From the IMG/VR virus record IMGVR_UViG_3300009285_004982: DNA of 62,247 bases, one strand, 5' to 3'. The translations under genes and the position numbers were made by a program. Of the stretch, positions 3,209 through 25,209 are shown one piece after another. The DNA comes from a virus. The number at the start of each line of letters is the position of its first letter. Position 1 is the first letter of the stretch. The notes under the pieces were generated by a model that was given only the letters and a program-made list of their open reading frames with translations, had not been told where the DNA came from and made no database searches.

Positions 3209-5243
3209 TATTCCTCTCCTAACCCAGAAGATAAGCGCCCGATATCCAGCGGTGCTGGCCAATCCAAAACATAAGGCGGATCTTATCGGCTTGATCAAGA
3301 AAGGGAACGAGGACAAGGCCGTTATTTATGCGAAGGATATTCTTGATCGGAAACCAAACCTGAAAGCCCATAATAAGATCGCCGTCGATCAACGATTACA
3401 ACGGCGAGAGTGGATGATATTCCAAATTGAAGTCGAGAAAACATTGAAAGATATCTACAACACACTGGCCGACAAAGTTAGTAAATTGCTCACCAACGCA
3501 GCGGATGATTCCGGTATTATTCCGTTCGCGAAATCAAGACACTTACTGAAGAGGATTCGTGATCTTGTTTATGAATCATATTCGGAAATTACTGTCCTTG
3601 TCAAAAGCGCGGTTAGGAAATCAATCAAAGACGGACTTTTCCAAACAGGAGACGCGGCCCAAGTTGGTGCTGATTATGCCCAGGAAGAAACAGATTTACG
3701 ATTTCCTGACGATCATGTAAATCTGGATTTGGTGGAAGCACCTGTCAAACCTGGGATGTTAAAGACGAGCGGCGTCTTCCAAAAGATATTTAACCGTGTG
3801 AAAAAGATGCGGATTGAGAAAGGCCTTTTCCCATTCAAGCCCAGGCCGCGTCAGATCGGCGGTTACGCGACAGGCCAGCCGCTCAGTCGCCTCATCTGGG
3901 ATGTGCGCCAATCTCATCTGAGTAAGATGCGAACCACGGTGGCCAATGGAATAGCCCAAGGGCGATCCGCCATCTCCGTCGCGAAAGATATCGAGAAATT
4001 TACCAGGGCTGGTCTCGCCGCACAAGCGAAAACGATTGGACGAACGTCCATTACTCCTTCCGGCCCTGGGATTTATGCCTCGTCGTATAAGAACGCGCTT
4101 CGTGTCGCCCGCACGGAGATGAACTCGGCTTATGTCTCGGCCCAGCTTGAATACGTGAAGCAGAAGGGGTATCAGGTTCAGTGGCATATAAATCCTGAGG
4201 CATGCCCGTTATGTGAACCACGAGACGGTAAGATATACGACCCAGAAGATGCAGATATACCTCTCCATCCAAACTGTGTTACGGAAGACACATTAATTTT
4301 GACATTGAAAGGTTCAATTAAAATATCAGAATTATGTGCGGGAGATATGGTCTATGGAAAATCTGGTTATCCAAGAAAAATTACGAAAGTTCATAAGAAT
4401 CGGTTCGATGGGTTTATCTATGATATGAATGGTTTAAAAATCACAGGAAATCATTCCCCATTTCTTTACAAAAGGGGATGGGTCAATGCGGAGAATATCA
4501 CAGAGAGGGATAAAATATTTAGGGCTGAATCGATTATGGTGGAAAAACACGGGGACGATTTTCCAACCAATTTTCATAAGCCAATCCGCTTTTATAATAT
4601 CTTGAACTCTTTTTTTTCTGGAATAATGCCATCCGCCGCCATGAATTTCAATACCAGTTTTTTCACTTGGAATCGCAAGATCGATATTAAATTTCCCAAC
4701 AGCCATGTTGATGATATGGGGGATACTATAAAGATCGAGAAATCGGCTCATTTCAATTTCTCCATGCGTTGGTTTCATATATTTTTCTTTAGATTTCGCC
4801 TGTTTGCACAATACCTCATATGGTCTTTTTACGCCCCTTACAGCATCATGGGCGTTTTTAACTATATGGGCACGTTTGGCAGGGCTATACCTTGTCCAGC
4901 TCAATTTCCCAGCTTCGGACAAAGATCTCCATCTAAATCCAAATTTCAAAAATCTATCAGTGATACATTTCCGGCTGATTCCTTCGATTTTGGATATATC
5001 AAGAATGCTTTCCCCGTTCATATGCCTTCGATGGAAATCATGGACGTTGAATCTGATCATTTTTTTCGACATGGAGACATTCTGTATAAGATTGTGCCTG
5101 TCAAATTAAAAAAAAATAAGTTTTCTGGTTATGTTTATAATATTACTGTCGATGAAGATGAATCTTATTGGGCCAATCGAATCCTTGTTCATAATTGTTC
5201 ATGCTGGGTAAGTACATTCATTCCCGGTCTGAGCGAAGAATGA
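3162..5243 (+). CDS. Head morphogenesis protein (Mu F / SPP1 gp7 family) interrupted by an in-frame intein (4275..5195)
   Basis: ARTEMNSAY...CPLCEPRDGKIYDPEDADIPLHPN | intein | CSCWV reconstitutes the family HPNC(R/S)C motif. The gene follows the portal gene. An alternative start is ATG 3195. Confidence 0.75.
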   Translation: MLPRTTRKKTAMPTLDIPLLTQKISARYPAVLANPKHKADLIGLIKKGNEDKAVIYAKDILDRKPNLKAHNKIAVDQRLQRREWMIFQIEVEKTLKDIYNTLADKVSKLLTNAADDSGIIPFAKSRHLLKRIRDLVYESYSEITVLVKSAVRKSIKDGLFQTGDAAQVGADYAQEETDLRFPDDHVNLDLVEAPVKPGMLKTSGVFQKIFNRVKKMRIEKGLFPFKPRPRQIGGYATGQPLSRLIWDVRQSHLSKMRTTVANGIAQGRSAISVAKDIEKFTRAGLAAQAKTIGRTSITPSGPGIYASSYKNALRVARTEMNSAYVSAQLEYVKQKGYQVQWHINPEACPLCEPRDGKIYDPEDADIPLHPNCVTEDTLILTLKGSIKISELCAGDMVYGKSGYPRKITKVHKNRFDGFIYDMNGLKITGNHSPFLYKRGWVNAENITERDKIFRAESIMVEKHGDDFPTNFHKPIRFYNILNSFFSGIMPSAAMNFNTSFFTWNRKIDIKFPNSHVDDMGDTIKIEKSAHFNFSMRWFHIFFFRFRLFAQYLIWSFYAPYSIMGVFNYMGTFGRAIPCPAQFPSFGQRSPSKSKFQKSISDTFPADSFDFGYIKNAFPVHMPSMEIMDVESDHFFRHGDILYKIVPVKLKKNKFSGYVYNITVDEDESYWANRILVHNCSCWVSTFIPGLSEE
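4275..5195 (+). mobile_element. Class-1 intein (307 aa) lacking a recognisable sense-strand endonuclease domain
   Basis: Cys1 CVTEDTLILTLKG, block B LKITGNHSPF, blocks F/G GYVYNITVDEDESYWANRILVHN, then Cys+1. The central part is low-complexity on the + strand. Confidence 0.75.
4434..5072 (-). CDS. Vsr/DUF559-like PD-(D/E)XK endonuclease (putative homing endonuclease) encoded antisense inside the Mu-F intein
   Basis: 212-aa ORF, codon-aligned antisense to the intein frame. Core motif KFNIDLAIPSEKTGIEIHGGGWH...DWLMKIGWKIV, with an HTH-like N-terminal region. No obvious RBS. Confidence 0.55.
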   Translation of the reverse strand: MSKKMIRFNVHDFHRRHMNGESILDISKIEGISRKCITDRFLKFGFRWRSLSEAGKLSWTRYSPAKRAHIVKNAHDAVRGVKRPYEVLCKQAKSKEKYMKPTHGEIEMSRFLDLYSIPHIINMAVGKFNIDLAIPSEKTGIEIHGGGWHYSRKKRVQDIIKADWLMKIGWKIVPVFFHHNRFSPKYFIPLCDILRIDPSPFVKKWGMISCDF

Positions 5244-6004: not shown

Positions 6005-6631
6005 ATGAAAATACGTTTTTCTACTCAAGTTAAAACAGGTAGTTTCGATCTCGGCCTGCACAAACCAGTACGGGTCGCATCGATAGCAAATATTGATTTG
6101 ACGACCGGCGGATTGTTGACAATTGATGGAGTCACGCTTGTTGCCGACGATAGGGTACTCGTCAAAAATCAAACAGTCGGATCTGAGAACGGAATCTATT
6201 CAGCAGAGACGACAGCCTGGATACGAACTGATGATTTCGATGAAAGCGGGGAAATAATTTCCGGTTCTATCATCGCAGTTCAGGAAGGAACGGTTAACGC
6301 TGATACCCTGTTTGTCCTTTCGACCGATGGTACGATCATACTGGGGACGACATCGCTCTCATTCGTGAAGACAACCGTCAATCCATCGGATGTCCTTTTC
6401 AAATCGAATTGGATTCCGAATGAAATTCCATCCGGCGCCATCAATGGGACGAATGTCACCTTCACGCTGGCGAATACGCCGGATATTATCGTCTCCGTCA
6501 CGATAAACGGAATAGATCAGTTAGACCCGGATGATTATTCGATAACAGGATCAACGATAACATTGGTTGACGCACCGAAGGGATCTCCGGGAAATCCCGA
6601 CAAGTTATTGGCCAGTTACTTCAAAGTGTGA
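6005..6631 (+). CDS. Putative virion fiber or decoration protein (conserved phage fiber N-domain plus Ig-like C-terminal region)
   Basis: VRVASIANIDLTTGGLLTIDGVTLVADDRVLVKNQT..NGIY...WIRTDDFD matches a module I recognise from phage fiber proteins. The C-terminus is beta-rich: NGTNVTFTLANTP...ITGSTITL. Confidence 0.4.
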   Translation: MKIRFSTQVKTGSFDLGLHKPVRVASIANIDLTTGGLLTIDGVTLVADDRVLVKNQTVGSENGIYSAETTAWIRTDDFDESGEIISGSIIAVQEGTVNADTLFVLSTDGTIILGTTSLSFVKTTVNPSDVLFKSNWIPNEIPSGAINGTNVTFTLANTPDIIVSVTINGIDQLDPDDYSITGSTITLVDAPKGSPGNPDKLLASYFKV

Positions 6632-7640: not shown

Positions 7641-8396
7641 ATGCCAGAAATAAAATATGGACTTTTTAAAAAAACATCAGTTACAAAAGAATTTAATCCG
7701 AACCATGATTCGGACGGGAAATTCGGAAGCGGAGGCGCGGGATCAGGTAGCAGCGTCGGGTCTGGCGGTAGCAGTGGAGGGGCATCGGGCGCAAGTTCAG
7801 TCGGCGGATCTCCCGGTATTGCTGGAGGATCTGCCAGTGAGTTTTCCTCAGACGAATACAATCAATTTAACCGGCAAGTTCGGCAAACGCGAAGTCCTGA
7901 AACCTACGATGCTGTCCAGGATTATCAATCAAGCGCTACTGGATATCAGTCGACAAATTCTTATCTTCGCGGAAGTTCAAGCATGAGTCCAGCCGAACGC
8001 AAAGATGCGGATAGAATAACAAAGGGTCTCGATAAAGCTTTTGATAGAGCTCCCGCATTAAATCGAGATATCCTTGTTCATCGCGGTGTTGATGTAGATC
8101 GATTTGGAACTTCGAACGCGAATGATTTGGTAGGTAAAACATTAACGGATCGCGGTTTCGTTTCAACATCGGCAACAAGAAATGTGGCTAAAAATTTCTC
8201 AAAGAAATCAAATCCGGCGTATATGGAAATATCTGTACGTCGTGGTACAAAAGTTCTAACCCCGAATGGAATTACGAGCTCCAATAGATTCAGGGGAGAA
8301 AGAGAAATTCTTTTGAAGAGAAATTCTAGTTTCAAAATAACGGGTTCAAGGAAAGACGGAGCCTACACCGTTATACAGGCAGATCATGTCTCTTGA
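7641..8396 (+). CDS. ADP-ribosyltransferase, R-S-E (C3/VIP2/iota-like) class, with an N-terminal Gly/Ser-rich linker
   Basis: Catalytic triad motifs in the canonical order: ILVHRG (Arg), GFVSTSAT (STS), FRGEREILL (ExE). About 45-aa G/S-rich tract after an N-terminal FNPNHDSDGKFG motif. The 3' end overlaps the scaffold gene. Confidence 0.75.
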   Translation: MPEIKYGLFKKTSVTKEFNPNHDSDGKFGSGGAGSGSSVGSGGSSGGASGASSVGGSPGIAGGSASEFSSDEYNQFNRQVRQTRSPETYDAVQDYQSSATGYQSTNSYLRGSSSMSPAERKDADRITKGLDKAFDRAPALNRDILVHRGVDVDRFGTSNANDLVGKTLTDRGFVSTSATRNVAKNFSKKSNPAYMEISVRRGTKVLTPNGITSSNRFRGEREILLKRNSSFKITGSRKDGAYTVIQADHVS

Positions 8397-9935: not shown

Positions 9936-10922
9936 ATGGCAGAAGCAAATTTAGGTTACGCGCACAGGGGTGAAGTCGAGCATCTGATCCCCAAAGCGAG
10001 CACGGAGATAACAGCAGGCGATTATGTGGTGATGCCTCGCGAGTCGGACCCGATCAGTCGGGCCGTTCTTGGGGCTGAAACTCGTGTCTCTCCAGTCGGC
10101 TCGGCTTACGCCTGTCAATGGGGGGTCGGTGTATCAGACGATGATTTTAATACGAATTATCCTGGTGCGACGCCCTACGCAAGCCCGGCGGCGAATCAAT
10201 CGATTGACATAATTCGTAAAGGTGTTGTTCGGTTTCGAATTATCCAGACATCCGGGAAAGCCGGAGATAATGTGGTTTATTCCAGTGGTGGAACCGGGGC
10301 CCAATTGTTCAAGATAAATAATTTTCGCCGTGATGTCGGAGTCGGAGAAATCGCCAAGGACTTCTCAGGAGCTACGGCAAACGATACTCAACAGGTTGTC
10401 CTTTACGAGAAATCCCTTCATGGCCAGGATATCTATTTCTGGCTACAGAATAGAGTCGTCCAGGGATGCAAATTCAAGGCGCGATCTCTCGCTTCCTCTC
10501 GTGGTTCAAGCCAGATAAACGCGGGAGCGACCGGCGAGGTCAATATGTTCATGGTGAAGGGTAAGGTGAATTCCGTTGCCCGCGTCACCGGCTTTGTCGT
10601 CGGCGGAATCAATCCGGGAGGGCAATCGGCCATCCGATTCTACTGGCTGGCCTGCAAGCTCTCTACTACGGGAGCAGCCCCGGCGTTTACGAAAGAGACC
10701 TGCACTGGTCCTTTTTCCGCATTCGCGAGCTGGACCAATTCAGGCATAAGCGTAGGAATGATGATTCCCATAACCTGGCAATCAAATCTTATTCCGGCGG
10801 CTCTTATGGTCGGTTGGTCAAATACCCAGGTGACGATAGCAGATGCGAAACTCATTAATTTGGGCGGGCCTTTCATTCCAAACGGTCAAAAGCTATTTGA
10901 TCATGGAACTTGGTATCTCTAA
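9936..10922 (+). CDS. Capsid decoration-like protein, paralog 1 of a tandem pair
   Basis: 328 aa, strong RBS AAGGAGGAGG. The N-terminal half resembles DUF2190-type decoration proteins (ITAGDYVV...GVGV...KGVVRFRI...GDNVVYSS). It aligns end to end with 10964..11944. Confidence 0.5.
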   Translation: MAEANLGYAHRGEVEHLIPKASTEITAGDYVVMPRESDPISRAVLGAETRVSPVGSAYACQWGVGVSDDDFNTNYPGATPYASPAANQSIDIIRKGVVRFRIIQTSGKAGDNVVYSSGGTGAQLFKINNFRRDVGVGEIAKDFSGATANDTQQVVLYEKSLHGQDIYFWLQNRVVQGCKFKARSLASSRGSSQINAGATGEVNMFMVKGKVNSVARVTGFVVGGINPGGQSAIRFYWLACKLSTTGAAPAFTKETCTGPFSAFASWTNSGISVGMMIPITWQSNLIPAALMVGWSNTQVTIADAKLINLGGPFIPNGQKLFDHGTWYL

Positions 10923-10963: not shown

Positions 10964-11944
10964 ATGGCAGAAGTAAATCTTAATTATGCCCACCGTGGCG
11001 AGACAGAGAATATAATTCCAAAGGCGAGCACACAGCTCACATCGGGAGATTATGTGGTCATGCCGAGAGGATCTGATCCGATTAGTCGCGCCGTTTTGGG
11101 TGCGGAATCGAGGATCGCCCCGGCTGCGACAGCCTATTCATGTCAATGGGGAGTCGGAATCGTCGATGCCGATTTCTCAACGAATGTTGTTGGCTCAACA
11201 TTGTATGCGACCCCAACGGCAAATGAAGCATTGCCGGTTATCAGAAAAGGTGTCGTCAGATTGAAAGTCGTTCAGACATCCGGTAAGGCTGGGGATAACG
11301 TGATCTACTCAAGTGGGGCGACGGGAGCGCAGCTCTTCACGATCAATAACTTCAGACGCGATGTCGGCGTCGGTTCGATTGCGAAAGATTTCTCCAGCGC
11401 GACCGCAAATGACACTCAACAGATAGTTCTCTATGAGAAGCCTTTACATGGTAAAGATGTTTATTTCTGGCTCGGCAATCGCGTTGTCCAGGGATGTAAG
11501 ATCAAAAAGCATTCCGTTAACAATCAAGCTTCAACTCAGGTAAATGCTGGTGCTACTGGTGAAGTAAACTTATTCATGATTAAGGGGAAATTGAATTCCG
11601 TTGCCCGGGTAACAGACTTTACTATGGGAGCACTGGCTCCCGGCGCATCCGATATTAGGTTCTATTGGGTGGCCGCGAAATTATCGACGACCGGGGCTGC
11701 GGCAGCTTTCACGAAGGAAACTTGCACAGGGCCATTCACGGCCCTGGCTAGTTGGACGAATTCCGGCGTCAGTGCCGGGATGATGATCCCGATCACATGG
11801 AGATCAAATCTGATTCCCGTTGCTCTTATCGTTGGGTGGTCGGCAACGGCTGTCTCGATAGCGAATAATAGAATTCTGAATTTGGGAGGAATGGCTCTTC
11901 CAAATGGAACGAATGTATTCGATCACGATACGTGGTACCTGTAA
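10964..11944 (+). CDS. Capsid decoration-like protein, paralog 2 of a tandem pair
   Basis: 326 aa, RBS GAGGAGG. Collinear with paralog 1 (MAEVNLNYAHRGETENIIPKAS... versus MAEANLGYAHRGEVEHLIPKAS...). Confidence 0.5.
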   Translation: MAEVNLNYAHRGETENIIPKASTQLTSGDYVVMPRGSDPISRAVLGAESRIAPAATAYSCQWGVGIVDADFSTNVVGSTLYATPTANEALPVIRKGVVRLKVVQTSGKAGDNVIYSSGATGAQLFTINNFRRDVGVGSIAKDFSSATANDTQQIVLYEKPLHGKDVYFWLGNRVVQGCKIKKHSVNNQASTQVNAGATGEVNLFMIKGKLNSVARVTDFTMGALAPGASDIRFYWVAAKLSTTGAAAAFTKETCTGPFTALASWTNSGVSAGMMIPITWRSNLIPVALIVGWSATAVSIANNRILNLGGMALPNGTNVFDHDTWYL

Positions 11945-12048: not shown

Positions 12049-13125
12049 ATGGAATTGATGACCGAACAAGCGATGGCAATGGACTATATCGGTGACATTA
12101 CGAATCAGGTCACCAGGGAAGGCAAAAATGATTTATGGCGTGAGAATACACTCAAAAATAGGGCCTATTTCTCAAAAGGGAATCCCGATCTCACGGGACT
12201 GACATCCTTCGTCGTCGCCGCCGGACCCAGCCTGGAAAAGAATGTCCATCTTTTAAAAACGATATCGCCAAGAGGTGTCATCGTCTGCGTTGATGCGGCC
12301 ATGCGGTTCCTTGTTCAGAATGGAATCTATCCGGAGTATTGTGTTTCAATAGACGGATCAGAAAAGATGATCGCCATGATTGATGGGATCGATACGAGTA
12401 GAACAACACTTGTCAGCACTCCATCGGCGGCTCCCGATCTTGTAGCGAACTGGAAAGGCCAGATGTTTTTTGTTCATACCCCGCATGCCAAGGCGGATCG
12501 GGATTTCAATCATTTTCATCTCACCCGAATTGTCAAAGCAAATCGCGATATTCCAAAAGGCGATGAAATTATCGCAGACCAAGATTATGTTGTTGAATTC
12601 GAAGGGATTAATTCTCTTATCCTGACGGGCGGAAATGTGTCAACCGCAGCTCACCATTTTTCAATGCAATTTCTGAAGGCTCAACAAGTCGTATTCGTCG
12701 GTCTCGATCTATCATGGGAATATGATTCGCATCATTACGCGGGTCACGAGCATATCGAGAACACGCGCGCCCGCACGCTCACGCCTGGCGGGACACACTA
12801 TGATATTTACAAAAAAGAAGTGAAAACGAATCTGTCTCTTCTCGCATTTAAACGCTGGCATGAGGCAATGGCCAAGCAGATGAAAGGATCTGTCGTTAAC
12901 GCGACAGAAGGCGGAATCCTCGGCGTCGGTCAAGAGGGCGAGCATTTCGATTATATCGAGATCATGGATTTGAAAGACGCGATTAAAAAATACACTCCGA
13001 AAGAGTGGATCAATCAACCGAGCGAGAATTTGAATATAAAGCCTGAAGAAAAAGAAGTGGAATACGTATCCGCAACGGATATCACGAAAAAATATTCTTC
13101 GAATGGGAAAGACAAAGATGCCTGA
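12049..13125 (+). CDS. Maf / DUF115 (MptE-like) family protein, putative nonulosonic-acid glycosyltransferase, copy 1
   Basis: Signature SFVVAAGPSLEKNVHLLK...VIVCVDAAMRFLVQNGIYPEYCVSIDGS, then GGNVS...VFVGLDLSW. Confidence 0.65.
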   Translation: MELMTEQAMAMDYIGDITNQVTREGKNDLWRENTLKNRAYFSKGNPDLTGLTSFVVAAGPSLEKNVHLLKTISPRGVIVCVDAAMRFLVQNGIYPEYCVSIDGSEKMIAMIDGIDTSRTTLVSTPSAAPDLVANWKGQMFFVHTPHAKADRDFNHFHLTRIVKANRDIPKGDEIIADQDYVVEFEGINSLILTGGNVSTAAHHFSMQFLKAQQVVFVGLDLSWEYDSHHYAGHEHIENTRARTLTPGGTHYDIYKKEVKTNLSLLAFKRWHEAMAKQMKGSVVNATEGGILGVGQEGEHFDYIEIMDLKDAIKKYTPKEWINQPSENLNIKPEEKEVEYVSATDITKKYSSNGKDKDA

Positions 13126-14053
13126 ACTTCTCGTCGAAAATAAGCCGGTAGAAAATCTTCCGTCGGACAATCGTCCGATTCGAGAGCAGATGGAAGTCAT
13201 CCATAAGGCTCGCACAATCCGTACGCTCAGAAAACATAAGGGCGAATGGATTCACAATGTGAAGGAGAACTCATCGAAAATAAACAAAACGATTGCCGAT
13301 CTCTGGAAGGAACGAGATTACGGAGAAGGGATTTCCGTCGCGGCGGGCCCGTCGCTTAAGGAAGATCTCAATGATCTCAAGAAAATGCGGAAACATCGGG
13401 AACTCATCTGCGTTGATGCCTCGTTAGGATTTCTTGTCGATAACGGATTGACGCCTGATTTCTGTGTGACGACCGATTTCTCCGACAAAATACTTCTCAT
13501 GTTAAATCGAGGAGATAAGCCGATTGATACGTCAAACATAAAATTGATTGCCAACGTTATTACTCATCCAAAAGTCATCGAAAAATGGAAGGGAGAAGTC
13601 TATTGGTTCGTGATGATGAATAACGTATACGATATCGATTATCAAAAATTCATGGACGACATGCACGCATTAGAAACAAAAGTTGGAGCGAAGCTCGCTC
13701 CCGGCGGCAACGTCAGTTCGATTGCGCTCGGATTCGGACTATCCGTCAGAAACTACGAGAAGATTATCCTATACGGACACGACTTCTGCTGGAAGCCGGA
13801 AGGAGATTTCTATGCTGGAGGATCGTTCAAAGAACTTGAAAAAGAAAGGATGGAAAAAGAAGGGACGGCTGGCACAATTTTTGATGATACCAATACGAAG
13901 GGAGAGAAAGTTCTTACAAACCTTTCACTGCAGCAGTTTGCCAAATGGCATGAAGAAGCAACTCGATATATGAGACACCGGATCGACAACCGGACGAGTT
14001 GCACAATTTTAAATATCAAGCCGACGAATAATCATTCGACGAATAGTCGTTAG
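13103..14053 (+). CDS. Maf / DUF115 family protein, copy 2
   Basis: ISVAAGPSLKEDLNDLKK...LICVDASLGFLVDNGLTPDFCVTTDFS, then GGNVSS...ILYGHDFCW. Overlaps copy 1 by 23 nt. Confidence 0.65.
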   Translation: MGKTKMPELLVENKPVENLPSDNRPIREQMEVIHKARTIRTLRKHKGEWIHNVKENSSKINKTIADLWKERDYGEGISVAAGPSLKEDLNDLKKMRKHRELICVDASLGFLVDNGLTPDFCVTTDFSDKILLMLNRGDKPIDTSNIKLIANVITHPKVIEKWKGEVYWFVMMNNVYDIDYQKFMDDMHALETKVGAKLAPGGNVSSIALGFGLSVRNYEKIILYGHDFCWKPEGDFYAGGSFKELEKERMEKEGTAGTIFDDTNTKGEKVLTNLSLQQFAKWHEEATRYMRHRIDNRTSCTILNIKPTNNHSTNSR

Positions 14054-14079: not shown

Positions 14080-15054
14080 ATGAAAGAAATATGGGATTTA
14101 AAATCCATACGGGAAGCATCAACACGCTCGGAGTTCTATCAGTTTTTAAACGTGGGGCTAAAAGACCTCATGTTCAAGGCTTACAGAACGGCCAAAACGA
14201 CCTATCCGGCCATCGTCACATTCGAGGAATCGGATAAGGCGAAAGAAGGATATCCATCCACCGGTAACGTGGCCCTGCCGGAACAGGTTCTGGAAGGCGC
14301 TCCATTCATCGAGAGGACGATTCCGCCCGAGGATTTTGTTGAGGTCACAAATCATAAATATGGTGAGATCATTTCTATCACGGAAGAACTGATTGAGGAT
14401 GATAAGACCAACCAGATCAAACGGTTGCCGATGGATCTCGGAAATGCTCATGCGAAGAAAGAAGACAAAACAGTCTATTCGATCATCAATGGGAATCCGA
14501 CGATTTATGATGGTGGTGCGTTTTTCGCTCTGAATCATCCTGGTTATACGGGTGGAGCGGCCATCGCTGCGAACGATAACATTTACACGAATGTGACTCT
14601 CTCGGCTAATGCGCTCGCCGTCGCCCTCGGTATCATCGGCGGATGGACGGGACACTCGACGGAAGATCTTTTGGATGTCGTGGCCACGGCGCTCGTGGTT
14701 CCGACGAATCTTAAATATACAGCCAATCTCCTGACCAAGAGTGCATTTGCCCCATGGGCTTATGCGGCTGGAGCACTTGGTCCAGCGGCGACAACGGGAC
14801 AAGGAAAAAATGTGTTGGCCGAAGAAGGATTGGAAGTTATTTCATCTCCTCGTCTTGACGTGACATCAACAACCGATTGGTATATCAAAACTGACTTCGT
14901 CGGGATTCTATTCCAATGGAGACAGAAACTTGGTCTCTTTGAGGAACCGGAAGAAGCCGGAAGCCGGTTTGAGAGAGATGTGCGACGATGGAAATCGCGA
15001 AGCCGTTGGGCAACGAAGGTTCTCAACTGGCGCGGAATGTTTAAGGTTTCATAA
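14080..15054 (+). CDS. Major capsid protein (HK97 fold)
   Basis: 324 aa, RBS AAGGAGGAG. Contains PEQVLEGAPFIERTI...VTNHKYGEIISITEELIEDD, typical of Mu gpT-like / HK97-fold capsid proteins. Located after the scaffold and decoration genes. Confidence 0.7.
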   Translation: MKEIWDLKSIREASTRSEFYQFLNVGLKDLMFKAYRTAKTTYPAIVTFEESDKAKEGYPSTGNVALPEQVLEGAPFIERTIPPEDFVEVTNHKYGEIISITEELIEDDKTNQIKRLPMDLGNAHAKKEDKTVYSIINGNPTIYDGGAFFALNHPGYTGGAAIAANDNIYTNVTLSANALAVALGIIGGWTGHSTEDLLDVVATALVVPTNLKYTANLLTKSAFAPWAYAAGALGPAATTGQGKNVLAEEGLEVISSPRLDVTSTTDWYIKTDFVGILFQWRQKLGLFEEPEEAGSRFERDVRRWKSRSRWATKVLNWRGMFKVS

Positions 15055-15162: not shown

Positions 15163-15861
15163 ATGACAGCTGAATTAGGGAAAGTAAAGGATCTTCCCAT
15201 CTCGGATTTGAAAGCCGGGATGAAGGTCCAGAAAGATGTTATTGGGTATGGTGGAAAGATATTGGTGAACGCCGGTGAAGTCTTGAGCCATAAGCATGTC
15301 ACCCAGCTCACCAAATGGGAAGGCCGTTCACAGCCGCCAGGCCCTGTTCTGGCAAAAGAGAAACCATCGAATAAGAATGAACCTCTTCGTCGCGGGCCAG
15401 CGCCCGAGCGGTGGAAAGTCAGTCATTTCAATCCCCAGGGAATACGCGTATCCAACACATTGGCAAGCGGAGATCTGAATCCGGCAGTCGAACAGAATAT
15501 TGAGCTCTCTCCTCGATTCCAGAAAGAAACCCCAAGATCGTCGTTCTCGCCGGGTCCTATCGACATCCCTTCTCCTCTTGAGAGGTCTATGGAACTCAGG
15601 ACCGAGATCAAGACGCTTGAGGGAATGAATGCCGAGCTCGGAGGTCGCCTTTGGGATGATCCGACGAATTATGCCGGGGAATCCGAATTGTCAGGTCGTA
15701 AGCTAGGGTTGATTGAAGATAATAAAAGATTGATCAGCGGACTGAAAGCCAGCCGATCAATCGGACGATTGTCCGATGGGAATGGACATGAATCGGCAAC
15801 CCAGAGTGAAACGCTGATCGTGAAACGGAAACGAGGACGACCACGGAAAGATGCCGCTTAA
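15163..15861 (+). CDS. Hypothetical protein with a basic AT-hook-like C-terminus (KRKRGRPRK)
   Basis: 232-aa ORF, RBS GGGAGGAA. Confidence 0.5.
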   Translation: MTAELGKVKDLPISDLKAGMKVQKDVIGYGGKILVNAGEVLSHKHVTQLTKWEGRSQPPGPVLAKEKPSNKNEPLRRGPAPERWKVSHFNPQGIRVSNTLASGDLNPAVEQNIELSPRFQKETPRSSFSPGPIDIPSPLERSMELRTEIKTLEGMNAELGGRLWDDPTNYAGESELSGRKLGLIEDNKRLISGLKASRSIGRLSDGNGHESATQSETLIVKRKRGRPRKDAA

Positions 15862-16489: not shown

Positions 16490-17209
16490 ATGTCTTTCAT
16501 ACCCATATTAAGCCAATCTTTGGCAAAGAAAGGATTTCTTCCAACAAACATATCCGGCTTGTTATATTGGTTTCGATCCGATAAGGGTGTATTAGATGCA
16601 GTTGGCGCTCCTGCTGACCCGGATGATCCTGTCGATACATGGCAAGATCAGAGCGTGAATGCGAAACATCTAACTCAAACAACAGATGCAAATCGTCCGT
16701 TACTAAAATCAAACGTGATTAATGGTCATCCAACAATACGTTTTGATGGAAGTAACGATAGAATGACGACCTCAAGTTTCACCGAAATTCAACCGCATCA
16801 CAGAATATACGTGCTTAAGATTATTACTCTTGTGAATAGCGATTATCTCTACGATGGGCTACCATCAACTGATAAAGGTGCCGCTTTTATGGATGGATCA
16901 GGGAATGTATCGCTTTCGTCAGGATCTATTGCATGTGCTAGATTATATGGAAATTCTTCTTTTGTGATCGGATCGGCTTTTTTCAGTGGGGCTAGTTCTT
17001 CTCATTCCGTTAATAACGGAACTGCCGCAACCGGGAATGCTGGGACGGGTGCTCCGGGAGGTCTTACATTGGGATCTGCTCGCGGCGGTATTGCTCCTGG
17101 AAATATTGATGTCGCTGAATTCATGGGATATAACGCGCAGATAACTGGTACTAATTTGACGAATCTCATGAATTATTTATCTGAACGTTATGCGATTACA
17201 TTGGGATGA
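16490..17209 (+). CDS. Hypothetical protein with a LamG/concanavalin-like motif
   Basis: VDTWQDQSVNAKHLTQTTDANRPLL...NGHPTIRFDGSNDRM is typical of LamG-type lectin-fold domains. Confidence 0.4.
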   Translation: MSFIPILSQSLAKKGFLPTNISGLLYWFRSDKGVLDAVGAPADPDDPVDTWQDQSVNAKHLTQTTDANRPLLKSNVINGHPTIRFDGSNDRMTTSSFTEIQPHHRIYVLKIITLVNSDYLYDGLPSTDKGAAFMDGSGNVSLSSGSIACARLYGNSSFVIGSAFFSGASSSHSVNNGTAATGNAGTGAPGGLTLGSARGGIAPGNIDVAEFMGYNAQITGTNLTNLMNYLSERYAITLG

Positions 17210-17418
17210 CAGTATCTCATATTCAGAAATCTTCACGGATTCAGATCGGCTCTGAAAATGAATCGCTGACTATTCCGGCTCCTGATTCCGGACGATACAA
17301 TTGCCTGGAATCAATAACCGTTGAATCAAGTGCCGGATCTGATATGACGATAACATCGGGATCGAAGACGTTTAAGGTAGCAATTGGTCCGGGAAGCGGA
17401 TGGAAAGAGAAATTTTAA
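17206..17418 (+). CDS. Hypothetical protein
   Basis: 70-aa ORF overlapping the upstream stop. Confidence 0.4.
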   Translation: MTVSHIQKSSRIQIGSENESLTIPAPDSGRYNCLESITVESSAGSDMTITSGSKTFKVAIGPGSGWKEKF

Positions 17419-17422
17419 GCTC

Positions 17423-18187
17423 ATGATCTATTTCGTCCCCGCACGAAAAGACTCGAAACGAATACCGAACAAGAACACGCTTAAAGTTCTCGGGAAACCG
17501 CTTATTCAATACACGCTCGATCTAGTTTCGGAAATGAGTAAAGATAAGTCCTACTCAGGACCCGTCTACGTGTCAACCGACGACGAGGTGATTATCCAGA
17601 TCGCCAAGAGCTATGGATTCAACTGGTACAAGCGAGACGAGGAATTGTGTTCCGACAGGGCAAAGATGTCGGACGTTCTTTTCGATGCCGTTAATTTATT
17701 CGAATTAGAGGAGAAGGATATCTGCGTTTTATATCCGACGAGCCCGCTTCGTCTTGCCGATCATGTGAGAGAGGCCTGTATCGTCTGGAAACAGAAACAG
17801 AATCCGGTGTCAACTCTTATGAGCGTCTGTCCCGTTCTCTATCGTCCCTATGGTCTTATGGAGATACAGGCGAATGGGTTTCTCCACTGTAAACATCCAT
17901 ATGGCGAACTCTTCTATCAGGGACAGAATCAGCCAGTCGATTACCGGGCGAATGGGGCGATCTATATCATCCCTAAACAGGTCATTTTAAAACGAGAAAT
18001 CAATTCCCAACTTTTCAACAAAACGACGATCCCGTATGTGATGGACCCGATCAGCAGCCTTGAGATCGACACGCCGGAAGATATCCTGATCGCCGAGCAC
18101 TATCTATCAAAAAAAAATACAGCCAAATTTATCTACTCCCCTACTGTGACGAATCCGAAGGATTCCTATGCCTTCAGTTCTCATTAA
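17423..18187 (+). CDS. neuA: Acylneuraminate (nonulosonate) cytidylyltransferase, CMP-NulO synthetase family
   Basis: N-terminus MIYFVPARKDSKRIPNKNTLKVLGKPLIQYTLD matches the CTP_transf_3 signature. The ORF track start (TTG 17384) overlaps the upstream gene, so ATG 17423 is preferred. Confidence 0.75.
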   Translation: MIYFVPARKDSKRIPNKNTLKVLGKPLIQYTLDLVSEMSKDKSYSGPVYVSTDDEVIIQIAKSYGFNWYKRDEELCSDRAKMSDVLFDAVNLFELEEKDICVLYPTSPLRLADHVREACIVWKQKQNPVSTLMSVCPVLYRPYGLMEIQANGFLHCKHPYGELFYQGQNQPVDYRANGAIYIIPKQVILKREINSQLFNKTTIPYVMDPISSLEIDTPEDILIAEHYLSKKNTAKFIYSPTVTNPKDSYAFSSH

Positions 18188-19925
18188 TGTCCGGCCCTAT
18201 GTCTATCCAGGCGATGTTGTCGATAAACTAGATCGCAACTGCATAAAGAACGCCAAAATCCTTTTTATCAATATGCCACTCCGGGAGACAGCAGTTCCAA
18301 ATTGCCTTCCCCTTGGCCCCGCTCTTCTTGCCGCCACATTAAGACAATGGGAAGCCGTTCCGACGATGATCGATCTGAATGCCTATCGATTCAAAGATGC
18401 GAATGCAGAACTCAAAGGACTCAAAAACGGACGGACGATAAACGAGGTCGAGGCGGCGGATCTCATTCGAGGACACATTCGTGTCCATAGAATGCCGGAT
18501 ATGGTGGCCATGTCAGGCATGATTACAACCCTTAGATGGCAAATGACTGTCGCCAAAATTGTCAGGAATCTCATGCCGGATGTTTTCCTGGTAACAGGAA
18601 ATGGTCTGGCGACTGAATTCAAGGAAGGTCTTTTCCAGTGGATACCTGAACTCGATGGCGTGGCCCACTCGGAGGGTGATCTTTCGATCATCAAGATGAC
18701 ATACGATGCCGTTCAAATCAAACGCCTCGGTCAACACGGAGCCTATCTTTCAGGGAATCTTGACCCCTATTGTCTCGGTCTAGTTGGATCAAATGAAACG
18801 AATGTTTCAAAGTACCGGTTTCTATATGATGGTGGGCGTCCTAAGAACTTGGATGATCTCTCATTCCCGGCTTATGATCTCCTAGAGAAAGATGTGAATG
18901 GGTTTCCAGTTCTAGAAACTTATATCAAGAATGAAATATGGGGACTTAAGGCCAACAATTCAAGTGCAACATCATTCACAATGAAGAGGTCAATCAATAC
19001 CGTATCGAGCAGAGGATGTCCGTTTCAGTGTTCGTATTGTTTCCGTGGAGCTACTGGCGAACGAAATTATGCTGTTCGATCCGCCAAGAATTTAGCCGAG
19101 GAATTCATTCACTATGCAGACAAATATAATATCGACTTCGTGGGGGTAACGGATGATAACTTTTGTGTTCAACGAAAACGAATCCTTGATATGGAACCGT
19201 ACTTCATACCCCTCGTACGAAAGTCGAATATCCGTTGGGGGACCCATGCTCGTTTGGACGAAGCCGCAGATCTCACGCCGAATCGTCATGGTGAAGGATT
19301 TATATTCAACAACCCGAAACGAGTCGATAGTATGGCCAAATCTGGATGTGTCTATATCGGATTCGGAGGGGAAAGCGCCCATAAAACAACTCTCGAAAAC
19401 ATGGGAAAAGGTGGATTCATATTGGTCAACGGATTCGTAAATTGGCGTGGATTCGAATTCCCGCGAACGATGGTCGAGGGAATAAAGAACACCAAATATT
19501 CCGGAATCGACGCAAATTGTACTTGGATCAGACAGTTTCCAGGTGAAACCCTTGATCAATTAAAAACAACAATCGCTTTTATTATGTGGCAAAAGGAATT
19601 TTATTCTCAGTTCGGAGATGGTTCCGAATCGGTAAATCGCAATATGTTCGTGGCAACAGCATATCCTGGAACGGAAATGTTCAAACATCCAATCGTCCGA
19701 CAGAAACTTCACGACAATTTCGGAATCAATTACGATCAATTCGGAACTCCCGTTATCGACGATAATCTGAAATATTATGTTCTAGAGTTGGACGATGCTG
19801 ACAAAATTATGAAAGATCAACAGGGGAGAATTTTGAATTATGGCGAGCTGACAGAAGATCAGTTCATGGAAGCGGATGGATACGTGAAATCAAATCGGAT
19901 AGAAAAAATACTGGAGATGAAATGA
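18168..19925 (+). CDS. Radical SAM enzyme with an N-terminal B12-binding-like domain
   Basis: CxxxCxxC cluster motif SSRGCPFQCSYCF. The N-terminal region (LFINMPL...LPLGPALLAA) resembles class-B radical SAM proteins. Confidence 0.75.
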   Translation: MPSVLINVRPYVYPGDVVDKLDRNCIKNAKILFINMPLRETAVPNCLPLGPALLAATLRQWEAVPTMIDLNAYRFKDANAELKGLKNGRTINEVEAADLIRGHIRVHRMPDMVAMSGMITTLRWQMTVAKIVRNLMPDVFLVTGNGLATEFKEGLFQWIPELDGVAHSEGDLSIIKMTYDAVQIKRLGQHGAYLSGNLDPYCLGLVGSNETNVSKYRFLYDGGRPKNLDDLSFPAYDLLEKDVNGFPVLETYIKNEIWGLKANNSSATSFTMKRSINTVSSRGCPFQCSYCFRGATGERNYAVRSAKNLAEEFIHYADKYNIDFVGVTDDNFCVQRKRILDMEPYFIPLVRKSNIRWGTHARLDEAADLTPNRHGEGFIFNNPKRVDSMAKSGCVYIGFGGESAHKTTLENMGKGGFILVNGFVNWRGFEFPRTMVEGIKNTKYSGIDANCTWIRQFPGETLDQLKTTIAFIMWQKEFYSQFGDGSESVNRNMFVATAYPGTEMFKHPIVRQKLHDNFGINYDQFGTPVIDDNLKYYVLELDDADKIMKDQQGRILNYGELTEDQFMEADGYVKSNRIEKILEMK

Positions 19926-20557
19926 TTGATACGGAAACGATGAGAGAAAGACCAAGGCCCGCGTTCACGAAAGAAAGATTCTATGTCGATCACATGATGA
20001 AACACGGAATGGCTCTCTATCGTCGCCACGTGAGCCGCTACAAGTGGGCGGCCAGCCATCTAACCAGTGAGATGGAAGTGCTTGATGCCGGATGCGGTTC
20101 TGGTTATGGGGATTACATCCTGCTCAACAATTGCCTTAAGATGACATCCATTGACCAATCGGGAGAAGCCATCGAGTACGCGACTTATAAAGCTGAATCA
20201 TTGAATGAGAAGCGGATCAAGTATGGTGTTTCTACACTCCAGGATTATATGGCGAGTCCATCAAAATCTCATGCCATTGTCTGTATCGAGGTCATCGAAC
20301 ATTTGTCGGAAGAGAATCAACGCGCGTTTATGGCCGGGATGAAAAACGCGTTCTTCAAAAAAGAGGATGCCTTGTTGTTAATCACGACTCCGATCAGAAA
20401 AGAAGATAAATGGACTGAGTATCATGAACACGAATTCACGAAGTCTGAATTCCAGAATTTCCTATCAACCTATTTTCAGGATGTCCACTTCGAGGATCAG
20501 AAGAAATGGGATATACCGCATGATTTCCTATTAGGTGTATGTAGGGGCGTGCGATAA
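19922..20557 (+). CDS. Class I SAM-dependent methyltransferase
   Basis: Motif I VLDAGCGSGYGD and post-I IVCIEVIEHL. Confidence 0.7.
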   Translation: MIDTETMRERPRPAFTKERFYVDHMMKHGMALYRRHVSRYKWAASHLTSEMEVLDAGCGSGYGDYILLNNCLKMTSIDQSGEAIEYATYKAESLNEKRIKYGVSTLQDYMASPSKSHAIVCIEVIEHLSEENQRAFMAGMKNAFFKKEDALLLITTPIRKEDKWTEYHEHEFTKSEFQNFLSTYFQDVHFEDQKKWDIPHDFLLGVCRGVR

Positions 20558-21966
20558 TGAAACTATTCGGTAATGAGATCGGGAAAGGAAAAACACTTAT
20601 CTGTGTGGAAATTGGGATCTGCCATCAGGGAAATATGTCGATGGCCATCGAGATGATCGACATCGCCAAGGAGTGTGGGGCTGACGTTGTAAAGTTCCAA
20701 AAGAGGTCACTCAAACATCTTTATCGGAAGCCAGTCCTGGATAACCCGTCCGACGCCGCCCATTCTCTCGGCGTCTATATCCCGATCTTGGAGAAATGCG
20801 AGCTGACTGAGGACGAACATATCCGGCTGAAAAAGCATTGTGACGAGATAGGCATTCCTTACTTTTGCTCACCGTGGGATACGCCATCGATTGACTTCCT
20901 CGAATCTCTTGGGGTCGAGGCCTATAAGGTGCCGAGTGCCCTGATGTCGGATATATTTCATTTAGAGAGAATAATCAAAACAGGTAAGCCTTTTATTTTA
21001 TCTACTGGAATGCATTATGAAGACGAAATAGATGAAATCATGAAATTCATTGATGAGAAGGCAGAAGCAGAAAATGTTCCACGTGGCGTTCCACATAAAC
21101 AGATTATAGAATTGACGGATGAAATTTTGTCGATGCGGAAAAGAGGCACGCCAAAATCAACGGACGTGTCTAGAATGCCATCGGAATTATATGCGATGGT
21201 GGAAAAAATACAATCCCTTGACAAAAGAACAGAGATTCAAAATGAATTGTCGATCCTATACGCACGTTTATGTGAAGCGGGGAATAATCCAGAAGAATCC
21301 ATGCGAATTTTGTGGGGAAGCCAATGTACAGGCTCACCATACCGATTACAGCAAACCACTGAAAGTTCAATGGCTTTGCAAGACCCACCATCATTCACTC
21401 CATCGATCCCTCTCAAACAACGCATTGCATTGATGCACTGCGTCTCGAGCTATCCGACAGCCAACAAAGACATCAACCTGAACTATATGGGGGTCATGCG
21501 GGCCAAATACGGCCTTCCTGTCGGCTTCTCCGGCCATGAGCGCGGGATTCCCATCACCGTGGCCGCTGTGGCGCTGGGTGCACCAATCATAGAACGCCAC
21601 TTTACCCTAGATAGAACCCTTCCGGGGCCGGATCATGCCGCCAGCCTCGAACCACACGGCCTAGAAACGCTTGTGAGGCACATTAGGGCCGTTGAAGAGG
21701 CCTTGGGCGACCGGAAGGTCGTCAATCGCGGGGAATACATGGCCCGCGAGACTTTGGGGAAGATCTTAACCTGGGCTCAGGATCTCGAATCGAATTCGCC
21801 AGTAGGCGCACATTCATTTACAGCTTCGAGCCCAGGCTATGGTGTTCCGGTCTACAAGGGGCCCAAGTTTGTTGATATGCAATTGGTAACGACCAAGCCC
21901 GTCAGGGCCGGGGAACCTGTTTTTGAAACTGAATTGACTTATGGGAAAAAGGGAGAAAACGAATGA
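20557..21966 (+). CDS. neuB: Nonulosonic (sialic / legionaminic / pseudaminic-type) acid synthase, NeuB family, with an in-frame insertion of about 120 aa
   Basis: LICVEIGICHQGNMSMAIEMIDIAKECGADVVKFQKR, ILSTGM, ALMHCVSSYP, GFSGHE, IERHFTLDR..GPDHAASLEP, plus a C-terminal SAF-like domain. E. coli NeuB has about 20 aa between STGM..EI and ILHC; here there are about 140. Confidence 0.8.
   Translation: MKLFGNEIGKGKTLICVEIGICHQGNMSMAIEMIDIAKECGADVVKFQKRSLKHLYRKPVLDNPSDAAHSLGVYIPILEKCELTEDEHIRLKKHCDEIGIPYFCSPWDTPSIDFLESLGVEAYKVPSALMSDIFHLERIIKTGKPFILSTGMHYEDEIDEIMKFIDEKAEAENVPRGVPHKQIIELTDEILSMRKRGTPKSTDVSRMPSELYAMVEKIQSLDKRTEIQNELSILYARLCEAGNNPEESMRILWGSQCTGSPYRLQQTTESSMALQDPPSFTPSIPLKQRIALMHCVSSYPTANKDINLNYMGVMRAKYGLPVGFSGHERGIPITVAAVALGAPIIERHFTLDRTLPGPDHAASLEPHGLETLVRHIRAVEEALGDRKVVNRGEYMARETLGKILTWAQDLESNSPVGAHSFTASSPGYGVPVYKGPKFVDMQLVTTKPVRAGEPVFETELTYGKKGENE
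21119..21433 (+). CDS. HNH endonuclease-like ORF nested in an alternative frame inside the neuB insertion
   Basis: 104 aa: CRCG...CLECH...NPCEFCGEANVQAHHTDYSKPLKVQWLCKTHHHSLH, which is a beta-beta-alpha-Me / zinc-ribbon pattern of small phage HNH proteins. The frame is offset from neuB. Weak RBS. Confidence 0.55.
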   Translation: MKFCRCGKEARQNQRTCLECHRNYMRWWKKYNPLTKEQRFKMNCRSYTHVYVKRGIIQKNPCEFCGEANVQAHHTDYSKPLKVQWLCKTHHHSLHRSLSNNALH

Positions 21967-22787
21967 AACGAGGATGCAAGGCAAGGCCGCACGATATCGA
22001 CCAAGTGATTGAGATATTCAAGCCGGAACTGATTGAGATTCACGCAAGCTCTGAAGATCTCAAGAAAGAGTTTAACAAAGACTACGATCTACCTCTCGTT
22101 GTTCATCTTCCAGAATATGATCAGTCTGAGCTTATCGACGTAGCCTCCCTGGATGAGAAGAAACGAATCCAGGCGGTCAAGTTCTATAACAACGCCATGA
22201 ACGTGACGCGCAATTGGAGTAAGCGGTTTCGCGGGACTCCAAAATCCGTGCTCCATCCTGGGGGTATTAGTATCGAGCCAACGAACGCTTTGCAGAAACG
22301 GGAAATGTATGAGCAGCTTGGGAAATCGTTATCGGAAATCAACTCGCTGGGAGTGGATTTATTGCTTGAGAACATGCCGCCAAACCCTGTATTTTTTGGA
22401 GGCAGTTGGAAGTGCAACATATTCCTAGCGCCGCGAGATTGCATTGATTTTTGCAGCGGTCTTGGCTATGGTTTCGTATTCGACACATCACATGCCGGAA
22501 TGTTTTGTAATTCGGTAGAAAATGAAATAGATATTATGAAGTTTGCGACAATGGTCAGACCCGTGACGGCCCATATTCACTTAAACGATTGTAGGGATGT
22601 TGACCAAGAAGGGCTTGCTCTTGATTCGGGCACATTGGATTGGAGATCCGTTATTAGATATTTCGAATCTATGCCAATTGGTGTTGTCAGCGAGTGTTGG
22701 AACGGCCACAAGGATTCATGTCGAGGATTTATCGAGGATTGGAAAAAGGTTGACGAAGCGTTGAAAAAGGAAACGGTAGAAGGATAA
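21963..22787 (+). CDS. Xylose-isomerase-like TIM-barrel protein (sugar phosphate isomerase/epimerase family)
   Basis: VVHLPEYD...VLHPGG...LLLENMPP...FDTSHAGMF...HIHLND pattern. Confidence 0.5.
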   Translation: MKRGCKARPHDIDQVIEIFKPELIEIHASSEDLKKEFNKDYDLPLVVHLPEYDQSELIDVASLDEKKRIQAVKFYNNAMNVTRNWSKRFRGTPKSVLHPGGISIEPTNALQKREMYEQLGKSLSEINSLGVDLLLENMPPNPVFFGGSWKCNIFLAPRDCIDFCSGLGYGFVFDTSHAGMFCNSVENEIDIMKFATMVRPVTAHIHLNDCRDVDQEGLALDSGTLDWRSVIRYFESMPIGVVSECWNGHKDSCRGFIEDWKKVDEALKKETVEG

Positions 22788-24735: not shown

Positions 24736-25209
24736 ATGGAAAAGGTCGATGAGGCCATTTACAAAACATTACGCGACGATAGCGAAGCATCGGTTGGAAT
24801 CCGGGCACTATTGGGAAATACCACGACAACCCCTTACAATACATACCATGCTTTCCTTCCCGACAACATCGATTTTTCTCCGGCTGCTGGCAATGTAGGA
24901 TTTATTGTCTATATGAGAATATCAAGCACGCCGGATCTTGGCGTCCATAGTTTGTCAACGCTAACAGAACAAAGCGTATATCAGATATCGGCCTATCATC
25001 GAGTATTGTCTTCCGTTGAGGCCATCCATCGTCGAATTAAGAAGCGATTATTGCGTCTCGATCATGTAACGCAGCCAACGAGTCAATCCGGTCTTTATCA
25101 ATTGCTTTTGGAATCGGAAGATCCGGTGACGTTTGATGATTCGTTCAAAGTCTGGTTTCAACAGAAATATTATCGCGCATGGGTGAGGGACGATGACATT
25201 ATCTCCTAA
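24736..25209 (+). CDS. Putative tail terminator / tail completion protein (DUF3168-like)
   Basis: 157 aa, sits between gp10-like and tail tube genes. N-terminus VDEAIYKTLRDD...LLGN. Confidence 0.4.
   Translation: MEKVDEAIYKTLRDDSEASVGIRALLGNTTTTPYNTYHAFLPDNIDFSPAAGNVGFIVYMRISSTPDLGVHSLSTLTEQSVYQISAYHRVLSSVEAIHRRIKKRLLRLDHVTQPTSQSGLYQLLLESEDPVTFDDSFKVWFQQKYYRAWVRDDDIIS

Follow-up and report, generated by a model that had tools for sequence, protein, structure and literature searches.

Glycosylation of phage virions has, to our knowledge, been shown so far only in a few actinobacteriophages, and with ordinary sugars. The targets in mycobacteriophages are reportedly the capsid and tail-tube subunits, and the enzymes are said to be conventional nucleoside diphosphate (NDP)-hexose glycosyltransferases that attach neutral sugars in phages of Actinobacteria. 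Mycobacteriophage-encoded glycosyltransferases are reported to modify the phage's own structural proteins (Freeman et al. 2023, cited in PMC12582341). Maf proteins, the closest described enzymes, modify flagellin in the cytoplasm ahead of export (PMC4065374); their central domain resembles the sialyltransferase Cst-II, their C-terminal domain resembles flagellin chaperones (PMC11339370), and the acceptor is recognized through a tetratricopeptide repeat (TPR) domain at the C-terminus or a separate adaptor, GlfM (10.1101/2023.12.03.569772). Here, we describe three Maf-like genes in a 62,247-nucleotide (nt) stretch of virus DNA (IMG/VR record IMGVR_UViG_3300009285_004982; the window), which makes up all or most of the genome of a tailed phage. 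Open reading frame (ORF) 1 (12049-13125, plus strand; 358 amino acids (aa); transferase A) and ORF2 (13103-14053, plus strand; 316 aa; paralog B) lie in the head module, and ORF3 (25193-26452, plus strand; 419 aa; transferase C) lies in the tail module. Together with nearby genes for a nonulosonic acid (NulO), they lead us to propose, with moderate confidence, that this phage O-glycosylates its own virion proteins with a NulO through a self-contained late-gene system.

An original prediction made from the DNA letters had assigned the MptE/DUF115 signature to ORF1 and ORF2 at exactly these coordinates, and hidden Markov model searches bear it out. PF01973 (MptE-like/DUF115; curated cut-off 34.6 bits) matches ORF1 at 98.3 bits (E 5.4e-28, residues 50-224) and ORF2 at 89 bits (E 4e-25), both far above the cut-off, and the motifs are present in each (VVAAGPSL...VIVCVDA...PEYCVSIDGS in ORF1; SVAAGPSL...LICVDA...PDFCVTTDFS in ORF2). 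ORF3, which the prediction overlooked, also exceeds the cut-off (E 1.8e-27) and carries a 140-aa N-terminal extension. ORF1 and ORF2 are 28% identical (E 1e-35) and give partial matches to the NCBIfam flagellin modification protein PseD of Campylobacter (1.6e-14 and 3.6e-12, respectively). Database searches returned about 57 close homologs of ORF1, all of 310-390 aa and all metagenomic; its distant relatives (24-30% identity) are proteins of about 610 aa, some of them named 'motility associated factor glycosyltransferase', and ORF3 shows the same pattern, with Mafs of about 610 aa as distant relatives. An AF2 model of ORF1 (pLDDT 87.7) has the Magnetospirillum Maf 5MU5 as its top PDB fold match (E 6.7e-10, 305 columns, TMq 0.53), ahead of MptE.

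Like the Mafs of Magnetospirillum (5MU5), C. jejuni (PseD/Maf), Aeromonas (Maf1), C. botulinum (CbMaf) and Shewanella (Maf-1/Maf-2), the phage proteins have the PF01973/MAF_flag10 core with its motifs, are soluble and predicted to be cytoplasmic, and are genetically linked to NeuB/NeuA-type genes for a CMP-NulO donor. Unlike these Mafs, they are about half the size: aligned with six Mafs of about 600 aa, the phage proteins (316-419 aa) correspond to the central MAF_flag10 domain only, and the Rossmann-like N-terminal domain (~200 aa) and the helical/TPR, flagellin-binding C-terminal domain (~180 aa) are absent. Their genes are also placed in head and tail modules and not in flagellar glycosylation islands, one member (ORF2) is motif-degenerate, and their presumed acceptors are virion proteins. 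The three proteins contain no signal sequence and no transmembrane segment that could serve as a membrane anchor. The window proteins scanned include no flagellar ones, and the neighbors of the transferase genes encode decoration, capsid, tail-terminator and tail-tube proteins. The phage proteins thus appear to have kept the catalytic core and lost the flagellin-targeting parts, and an acceptor other than flagellin is therefore plausible. By sequence they are Maf-like, yet they fall outside Maf proper by architecture and context, and ORF2 also by its motifs.

The surroundings of the head-module pair are as originally described. Two tandem genes for decoration- or head-fiber-like paralogs (9936-10922 and 10964-11944, both plus strand), 72% identical to one another, lie upstream, and a gene for a major capsid protein with HK97 fold and likeness to Mu gpT (14080-15054, plus strand) lies downstream. 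ORF1 and ORF2 overlap by 23 nt, and 26 nt separate the end of ORF2 from the capsid gene. In the tail module, ORF3 overlaps the tail-terminator gene by 17 nt, and the gene for the major tail (tube) protein (26467-27231, plus strand) starts 14 nt past the end of ORF3, so that this third copy repeats the pattern of an enzyme gene beside a structural gene. PF01973 genes thus stand directly 5' of the genes for the capsid and tube proteins, the two components most abundant in the virion. Genes are tightly spaced or overlapping on a single strand, with strong AGGAGG ribosome-binding sites before the decoration, capsid and tube genes and weak sites before the enzyme genes; a promoter and terminator scan of 8-27.9 kb gave counts equal to the shuffled expectation and says nothing about where operons begin or end. 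Among known systems, the glycosylation of mycobacteriophage virions comes closest biologically, in that the same two virion parts, capsid and tube, are implied here. The differences are the Maf core, the CMP-activated nine-carbon acidic donor, the phage-borne donor synthesis, and the adjacency to structural genes.

A neuA/neuB cassette had been predicted 3 kb downstream of the pair, and a five-gene cassette (17384-22787, all genes on the plus strand) indeed starts 3.3 kb downstream, on the capsid side, with the NeuA-like and NeuB genes 3-8 kb from the transferases in the same strand block. Its first gene (17384-18187, with a possible true start at the ATG at 17423) encodes a NeuA/PseF-like cytidine monophosphate (CMP)-NulO synthetase (PF02348, CTP_transf_3, E 2.6e-16); its best NCBIfam match, PseF (3.5e-31), is under the equivalog cut-off, and its nearest PDB entries are the CMP-Neu5Ac synthetases 6ifd and 1eyr (~1e-22). 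A B12-binding radical S-adenosylmethionine (SAM) enzyme follows (18168-19925; PF04055 and PF02310); it has only weak matches to B12-radical SAM methyltransferase families and is a probable methyltransferase tailoring the sugar. The third gene encodes a SAM-dependent methyltransferase (19922-20557; Methyltransf_25/31/23/11) and, like the radical SAM gene, is syntenic in relatives. The fourth encodes a NeuB-family NulO synthase (20557-21966) whose PF03102 match (E 2e-78) is split into two stretches, and which scores 271 bits against NeuB_NnaB and 183 bits against PseI in NCBIfam, both under the cut-offs. The last gene (21963-22787) encodes a xylose-isomerase-like triosephosphate isomerase (TIM)-barrel enzyme of the sugar isomerase/epimerase type (PF01261, E 4.6e-17), which has no PDB sequence match and is syntenic in relatives L001 and L005 (L numbers denote contigs from our searches). 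Assignment of the sugar as a pseudaminic, legionaminic or neuraminic acid was tried and dropped, the NCBIfam and PDB similarities being about equal.

Context look-ups and a scan of IMG/VR recovered about 10 sequence-distinct relatives, in which identity to ORF1 ranges from 85% down to 41-44%. Their common gene order in the head part is scaffold-like, decoration, A, B and capsid, and it continues with cytidylyltransferase, radical SAM enzyme, (methyltransferase), NeuB, (TIM barrel) and, further on, tail terminator, C and tube. The head module always holds one A and one B, C adjoins the tube gene in every relative that reaches that far (L004/L071, L005, L042, L063, L068 and L072), and 9/10 lineage contigs keep the linkage to NulO genes. 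The decoration gene is duplicated in tandem only sporadically, in the window and L012/L022, with a single copy in the closest relative, L009; the decoration family was never seen without the A/B pair where the contig is long enough. The head modules of L001, L002, L011 and L012 contain an NAD-dependent sugar epimerase/dehydratase (PF01370/PF16363/PF02719), and L002 also encodes a cupin of the mannose-6-phosphate isomerase type (epimerase/dehydratase and cupin genes at L001 6285-7286 and L002 4133-4633 and 6644-7639). With the epimerase/dehydratase present in some relatives only, the sugar pathway varies within the lineage.

Motifs were compared across 71 distinct phage PF01973 proteins and 36 full-length Mafs. 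AGPSLxKN, D102, GxD and NxTEGG are kept in every Maf (36/36), in all orthologs of ORF1 (9/9) and ORF3 (7/7), and in 44/46 other phage copies; the Glu of NxTEGG, which lies in a region common to Mafs and outside the Pfam domain match of ORF1, has the same counts and is found in 0/9 orthologs of ORF2. None of these nine keeps E287-G-G of NxTEGG, where the ORF2 family instead has N(R/K/H)T(S/A)(C/S/A)(T/G), and N65, the Asn of AGPSLxKN, is lost too. This loss is ancestral to the whole lineage. Conservation within the ORF2 family is nevertheless good, with 46 invariant columns and a column identity that averages 52%, and the protein is therefore functional in some sense. The prediction of two Maf-like transferases stands as to family, both proteins being PF01973 members, and is weakened as to activity, since ORF2 is without motifs that are invariant in Mafs and the 'two transferases' may be one enzyme and a partner. 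ORF2 may assist ORF1 as a partner without catalysis of its own, or as its specificity subunit; alternatively, its catalytic activity may have changed. A precedent for such an arrangement is the tripartite Maf-2/GlfM system (10.1101/2023.12.03.569772), in which the catalytic Maf requires a separately encoded specificity factor, although GlfM is a small four-helix bundle and paralog B a degenerate Maf paralog. A partnership between A and B is here suggested solely by the motif loss and the adjacency of the genes.

Candidate acceptors are the decoration paralogs, the major capsid protein and the tube protein. The capsid protein matches PF25209 (E 1.4e-22), PF10124 (Mu gpT; E 8e-10) and PHROG major head protein families, and the tube protein matches phrog_807, 'major tail protein with Ig-like domain' (E 2.6e-11), with a weak YomU_Tube match in its orthologs. 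The decoration paralogs belong to a family of 69 proteins restricted to this phage lineage and have no Pfam, PHROG or PDB sequence match, including in a PDB search with the paralog profile; PHROGs likewise has no family for ORF1 or ORF2. An AF2 model of paralog 1 (pLDDT 82.8) shows N-terminal ~170 aa that resemble the capsid cement/decoration proteins of Pam3 (8hdt_G, E 1.9e-3), TW1 (5wk1_K), FCWL1 and Borrelia BB1, and a C-terminal portion of ~150 residues that forms an additional beta domain; in BFVD, 22 matches at E<=1e-3 include 'Head fiber protein', DUF2190 and 'Capsid fiber protein'. On the predicted structure, the paralogs are thus 'decoration-like' at the level of fold only. Like DUF2190 and TW1/Pam3-type cement and head-fiber proteins, they are encoded between scaffold and capsid genes with strong ribosome-binding sites; unlike these, they are twice the usual length, have the extra C-terminal beta domain, and are found only with the Maf-core pair. 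The paralogs, described as Ser/Thr-rich, or the capsid protein had been named as the likeliest acceptors, and for the paralogs this is not supported as worded: their Ser+Thr contents of 14.6% and 16.3% are only mildly enriched over the 12.5% that is average for the window, the tube protein has more (18.5%, densest in a patch at aa 83-125), and nothing favors the paralogs over capsid or tube. Two further Ser/Thr-rich proteins of the structural region, encoded at 16490-17209 (19.2% Ser+Thr; match to PHROG 10356 'virion structural protein', E 1.4e-11) and 6005-6631 (21.6% Ser+Thr), are additional candidate glycosylation targets.

The IMG/VR scan yielded 62 PF01973 loci, which collapse to 52 distinct phage contig clusters; outside the lineage of the window, NulO-gene linkage occurs in 10/42 PF01973-bearing phage clusters. 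A second lineage of 23 clusters has a P22/SU10-type portal and an SU10 adaptor (Pfam on L046). In 18/23 of these clusters a 307-aa protein at the capsid position is followed by a 160-aa Ser/Thr-rich protein and a PF01973 protein, and NeuB lies ~7 kb upstream in 5/23. Pfam and PDB sequence searches with the 160-aa family and the putative capsid protein were empty, and a candidate homology between the 160-aa proteins and the decoration paralogs was rejected (hhalign E 0.13 over 12 columns, not significant). Because these comparisons gave no support, a 'capsid - decoration - transferase' reading of the second lineage reflects gene order only. In other contigs, PF01973 genes are flanked by genes for tail fibers, a major head protein, or a nucleotide-sugar epimerase or aminotransferase, or stand directly beside NeuA and NeuB. 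Some PF01973 neighbors overall match tail-fiber PHROGs, which suggests tail fibers as possible targets in other phages; in L035/L036 (217 kb and 111 kb), L029 and L065, the Maf-core gene lies between very large ORFs (720-1350 aa). The link of Maf core, NulO genes and structural module recurs and, as far as seen, is confined to uncultivated phages. Among 50,697 GenBank phage records, tblastn with ORF1, ORF3 and a group-B PF01973 protein found no PF01973 relatives, a NeuB homolog was found in just 3/50,697, and megablast of 9-23 kb against GenBank phages gave no match, so that these records offer no cultured relative to compare with. A GTDB-wide search of 185,579 species genomes found no prophage copy; its sole match was a 65.6-kb contig, itself phage-like. 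This contig, L081/L002 (GCA_018333575.1, 65,649 bp), is a complete-looking phage of a distant clade binned as 'MAG: Sphingomonadales bacterium' (CROMO), and since the whole contig is phage-like, the bin is weak evidence of host. The original prediction knew of no described phage system of this type, and full-text literature searches, which excluded most subscription journals, likewise turned up no account of NulO on phage particles or of phage genes resembling Maf.

The genes present, their domains and motifs, and the synteny and co-occurrence observed above allow the biochemical steps to be proposed as follows. The NeuB-family synthase would join phosphoenolpyruvate and a host-supplied hexose or hexosamine, two methyltransferases and the TIM-barrel enzyme would tailor the NulO product, and the NeuA-like enzyme would convert it to the CMP-sugar; the donor would probably be a methylated CMP-NulO made from a host-derived precursor. 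Three soluble cytoplasmic transferases, each predicted to consist of the Cst-II-like Maf catalytic core alone, would then transfer the NulO to surface Ser/Thr residues of structural proteins, before or during assembly, with late expression, much as Maf acts on flagellin. Targeting would come from new partners and not from the flagellin-binding domain of Maf. In the head, A (12049-13125) would be catalytic, B (13103-14053) possibly a specificity subunit, and the target the major capsid protein, the decoration/head-fiber proteins or both. The tube protein, encoded just downstream of C (25193-26452), would be the substrate of that transferase in the tail, where C brings an N-terminal extension of its own.

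That the phage is equipped for NulO glycosylation of its virion, as originally predicted, draws strength from the transferase family, the loss of the flagellin-binding domain, the conserved position and linkage, and the third copy; the cassette, with the last two biosynthetic steps and tailoring enzymes only and an interrupted neuB, fits less well. The computational tests able to contradict the core idea all came out in its favor, and overall it is partly supported. Several points weigh against it. No enzymes for the hexosamine precursor (dehydratase, aminotransferase, acetyltransferase, hydrolyzing epimerase) were found among the window proteins scanned, and the epimerase/dehydratase of some relatives has no homolog in the window or in its closest relative. 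Compared with PDB structures, the NeuB-family protein is about as close to NeuB as to PseI and to sialic acid synthase, so that the type of NulO is not callable. The neuB gene has an in-frame insertion of ~350 nt, or 118 codons, at ~21040-21400 (about aa 170-287), by which the pathway may be impaired in this genome. PF01973 also includes the kinase MptE, for which reason transferase activity is presumptive; the predicted structures cover ORF1 and a single one of the decoration paralogs. Each acceptor is a candidate, neither the capsid protein nor the decoration paralogs are strikingly rich in Ser/Thr, and the whole argument for virion glycosylation is built from homology and gene context.

The insertion in neuB raises the question of whether the system is decaying or inactive in this phage, with neuB broken by a mobile HNH element and ORF2 dead, a view compatible with virion glycosylation in the lineage at large. 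L009, whose gene is otherwise 83% identical, lacks the insertion, as do L001 and L012; a +1-frame ORF (21119-21433) with the HNH motif HHTDYSKPLKVQWLCKTHHHSLH overlaps it, and no Rfam intron was detected in it (gathering threshold or E<=1). A mobile HNH element is one possible explanation, and an unrecognized intron or intein-like insertion another. ORF2 has lost its motifs, as decay would have it, yet that loss is lineage-ancestral and the protein still conserved; the neuB frame is open across the insertion, the flanking catalytic regions and all other cassette genes are intact, and CMP-NulO could also come from the host. We regard a decayed system as improbable. Also unlikely, in our judgment, is that the transferases are auxiliary or conversion genes of the late region that sialylate host flagellin, pili, S-layer, lipopolysaccharide or capsule, and so block superinfection or change the host surface. 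All characterized PF01973 transferases do modify flagellin (PMC11339370; 10.1101/2023.12.03.569772), and phage genes that modify NulO-containing host capsules are known (PMC12053666; PMC6586298). Set against this, the N- and C-terminal flagellin-binding domains of Maf are absent, there is no transmembrane segment or signal sequence that would direct the proteins toward envelope targets, and the genes occupy three separate slots, each adjoining a structural gene in conserved position. Nor is there any sign of lysogeny, with no integrase among the ORFs scanned and no prophage copy in the 185,579 species genomes.

The resemblance of the Maf central domain to Cst-II (PMC11339370) raises a different option, in which the enzymes act sugar-to-sugar like sialyltransferases, capping or polymerizing an otherwise-primed glycan or building a free or lipid-linked NulO polymer. 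The ORF1 model has weak fold matches to the eukaryotic sialyltransferases ST8SiaIII and ST6GalNAc2, ORF3 has a weak PHROG match to 'alpha-2,3-sialyltransferase' (E 0.0034), and three paralogs could work in sequence. Maf is nonetheless nearer in sequence and fold than any sugar-acceptor sialyltransferase, the scanned window proteins revealed no other glycosyltransferase family, and the split of copies between head and tail suits distinct protein targets better than serial steps, and we give this option little credence. Highly improbable is that the PF01973 proteins are MptE-like pyrophosphokinases or other nucleotide-dependent enzymes, for instance for pterin metabolism or for modifying DNA or nucleotides, packaged with the head. 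Pfam takes the name of the family from MptE, the archaeal 6-hydroxymethyl-7,8-dihydropterin pyrophosphokinase (HPPK; 8SD5), which shares the GxGPSL nucleotide-binding loop with ORF1 and is its second-best match in both sequence and fold. Maf outranks it in sequence (E 0.0012 vs 0.01) and in fold (6.7e-10 vs ~4e-6, the latter over ~230 columns with TMq 0.33-0.36), and ORF1 shares with Maf the NxTEGG region beyond the Pfam domain match; MptE is a shorter, single-domain protein without this C-terminal region and belongs to a context of pterin biosynthesis. The repeated linkage is to NeuA/NeuB and not to folate/pterin or DNA-modification genes, and the scan of window proteins showed none of the pterin pathway.

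If virion glycosylation by these enzymes is borne out, the phages would be the first bacterial viruses with NulO-glycosylated particles, and their structural proteins the first non-flagellin substrates of the Maf family. A negatively charged phage surface chemistry of this kind would be new and could have consequences for how particles adsorb and aggregate, for their stability, for grazing, and for recognition by lectins or the immune system. Maf enzymes, so far regarded as specific for flagellin, would acquire further substrates, with the phage proteins as minimal catalytic cores made by nature. Engineering of protein O-sialylation has already been attempted with CbMaf (PMC11339370), and minimal cores with differing acceptor specificity would be attractive for this purpose. 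With an enzyme gene beside each putative substrate gene, the loci offer testable enzyme-substrate pairs, and paralog B would be a test case for a pseudo-enzyme in targeting. A broader idea, which we judge evenly balanced, is that several unrelated uncultivated tailed-phage lineages coat their heads and tails with NulO by means of minimal Maf cores, each encoded beside its substrate gene, and that targeting in the present lineage falls to a paralog that has lost catalysis.

Elsewhere, the window encodes portal, Mu-F-like head, scaffold-like, connector, tail-terminator, tube, tape measure and primase/helicase proteins; no tRNAs were found in the window, and no integrase among the ORFs scanned. 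Ahead of the scaffold-like gene, 7641-8396 encodes a protein of the ADP-ribosyltransferase exoenzyme type (PF03496, E 1.6e-20). Its N-terminus is rich in Gly/Ser, and it is possibly an effector that is ejected or held inside the capsid. Right after the capsid gene, 15163-15861 encodes a 232-aa protein with a C-terminal AT-hook-like KRKRGRPRK (weak PF02178 match). The portal ORF (455-3208, 917 aa) has an insertion of ~361 aa (aa 369-729) relative to its 531-aa ortholog in L001, which is most likely an intein given a weak LAGLIDADG_3 match. The Mu-F-like minor head protein (3162-5243) contains an intein of ~305 aa (Hint/Intein_splicing matches; CVTEDT...VHNCSCW), the insertion being exact relative to L001. 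The center of this intein is junk-like in the plus frame and holds an antisense ORF of 212 aa (4434-5072, minus strand) with a likeness, judged by eye only, to Vsr/DUF559-type endonucleases; a homing-endonuclease gene antisense within an intein would be unusual.

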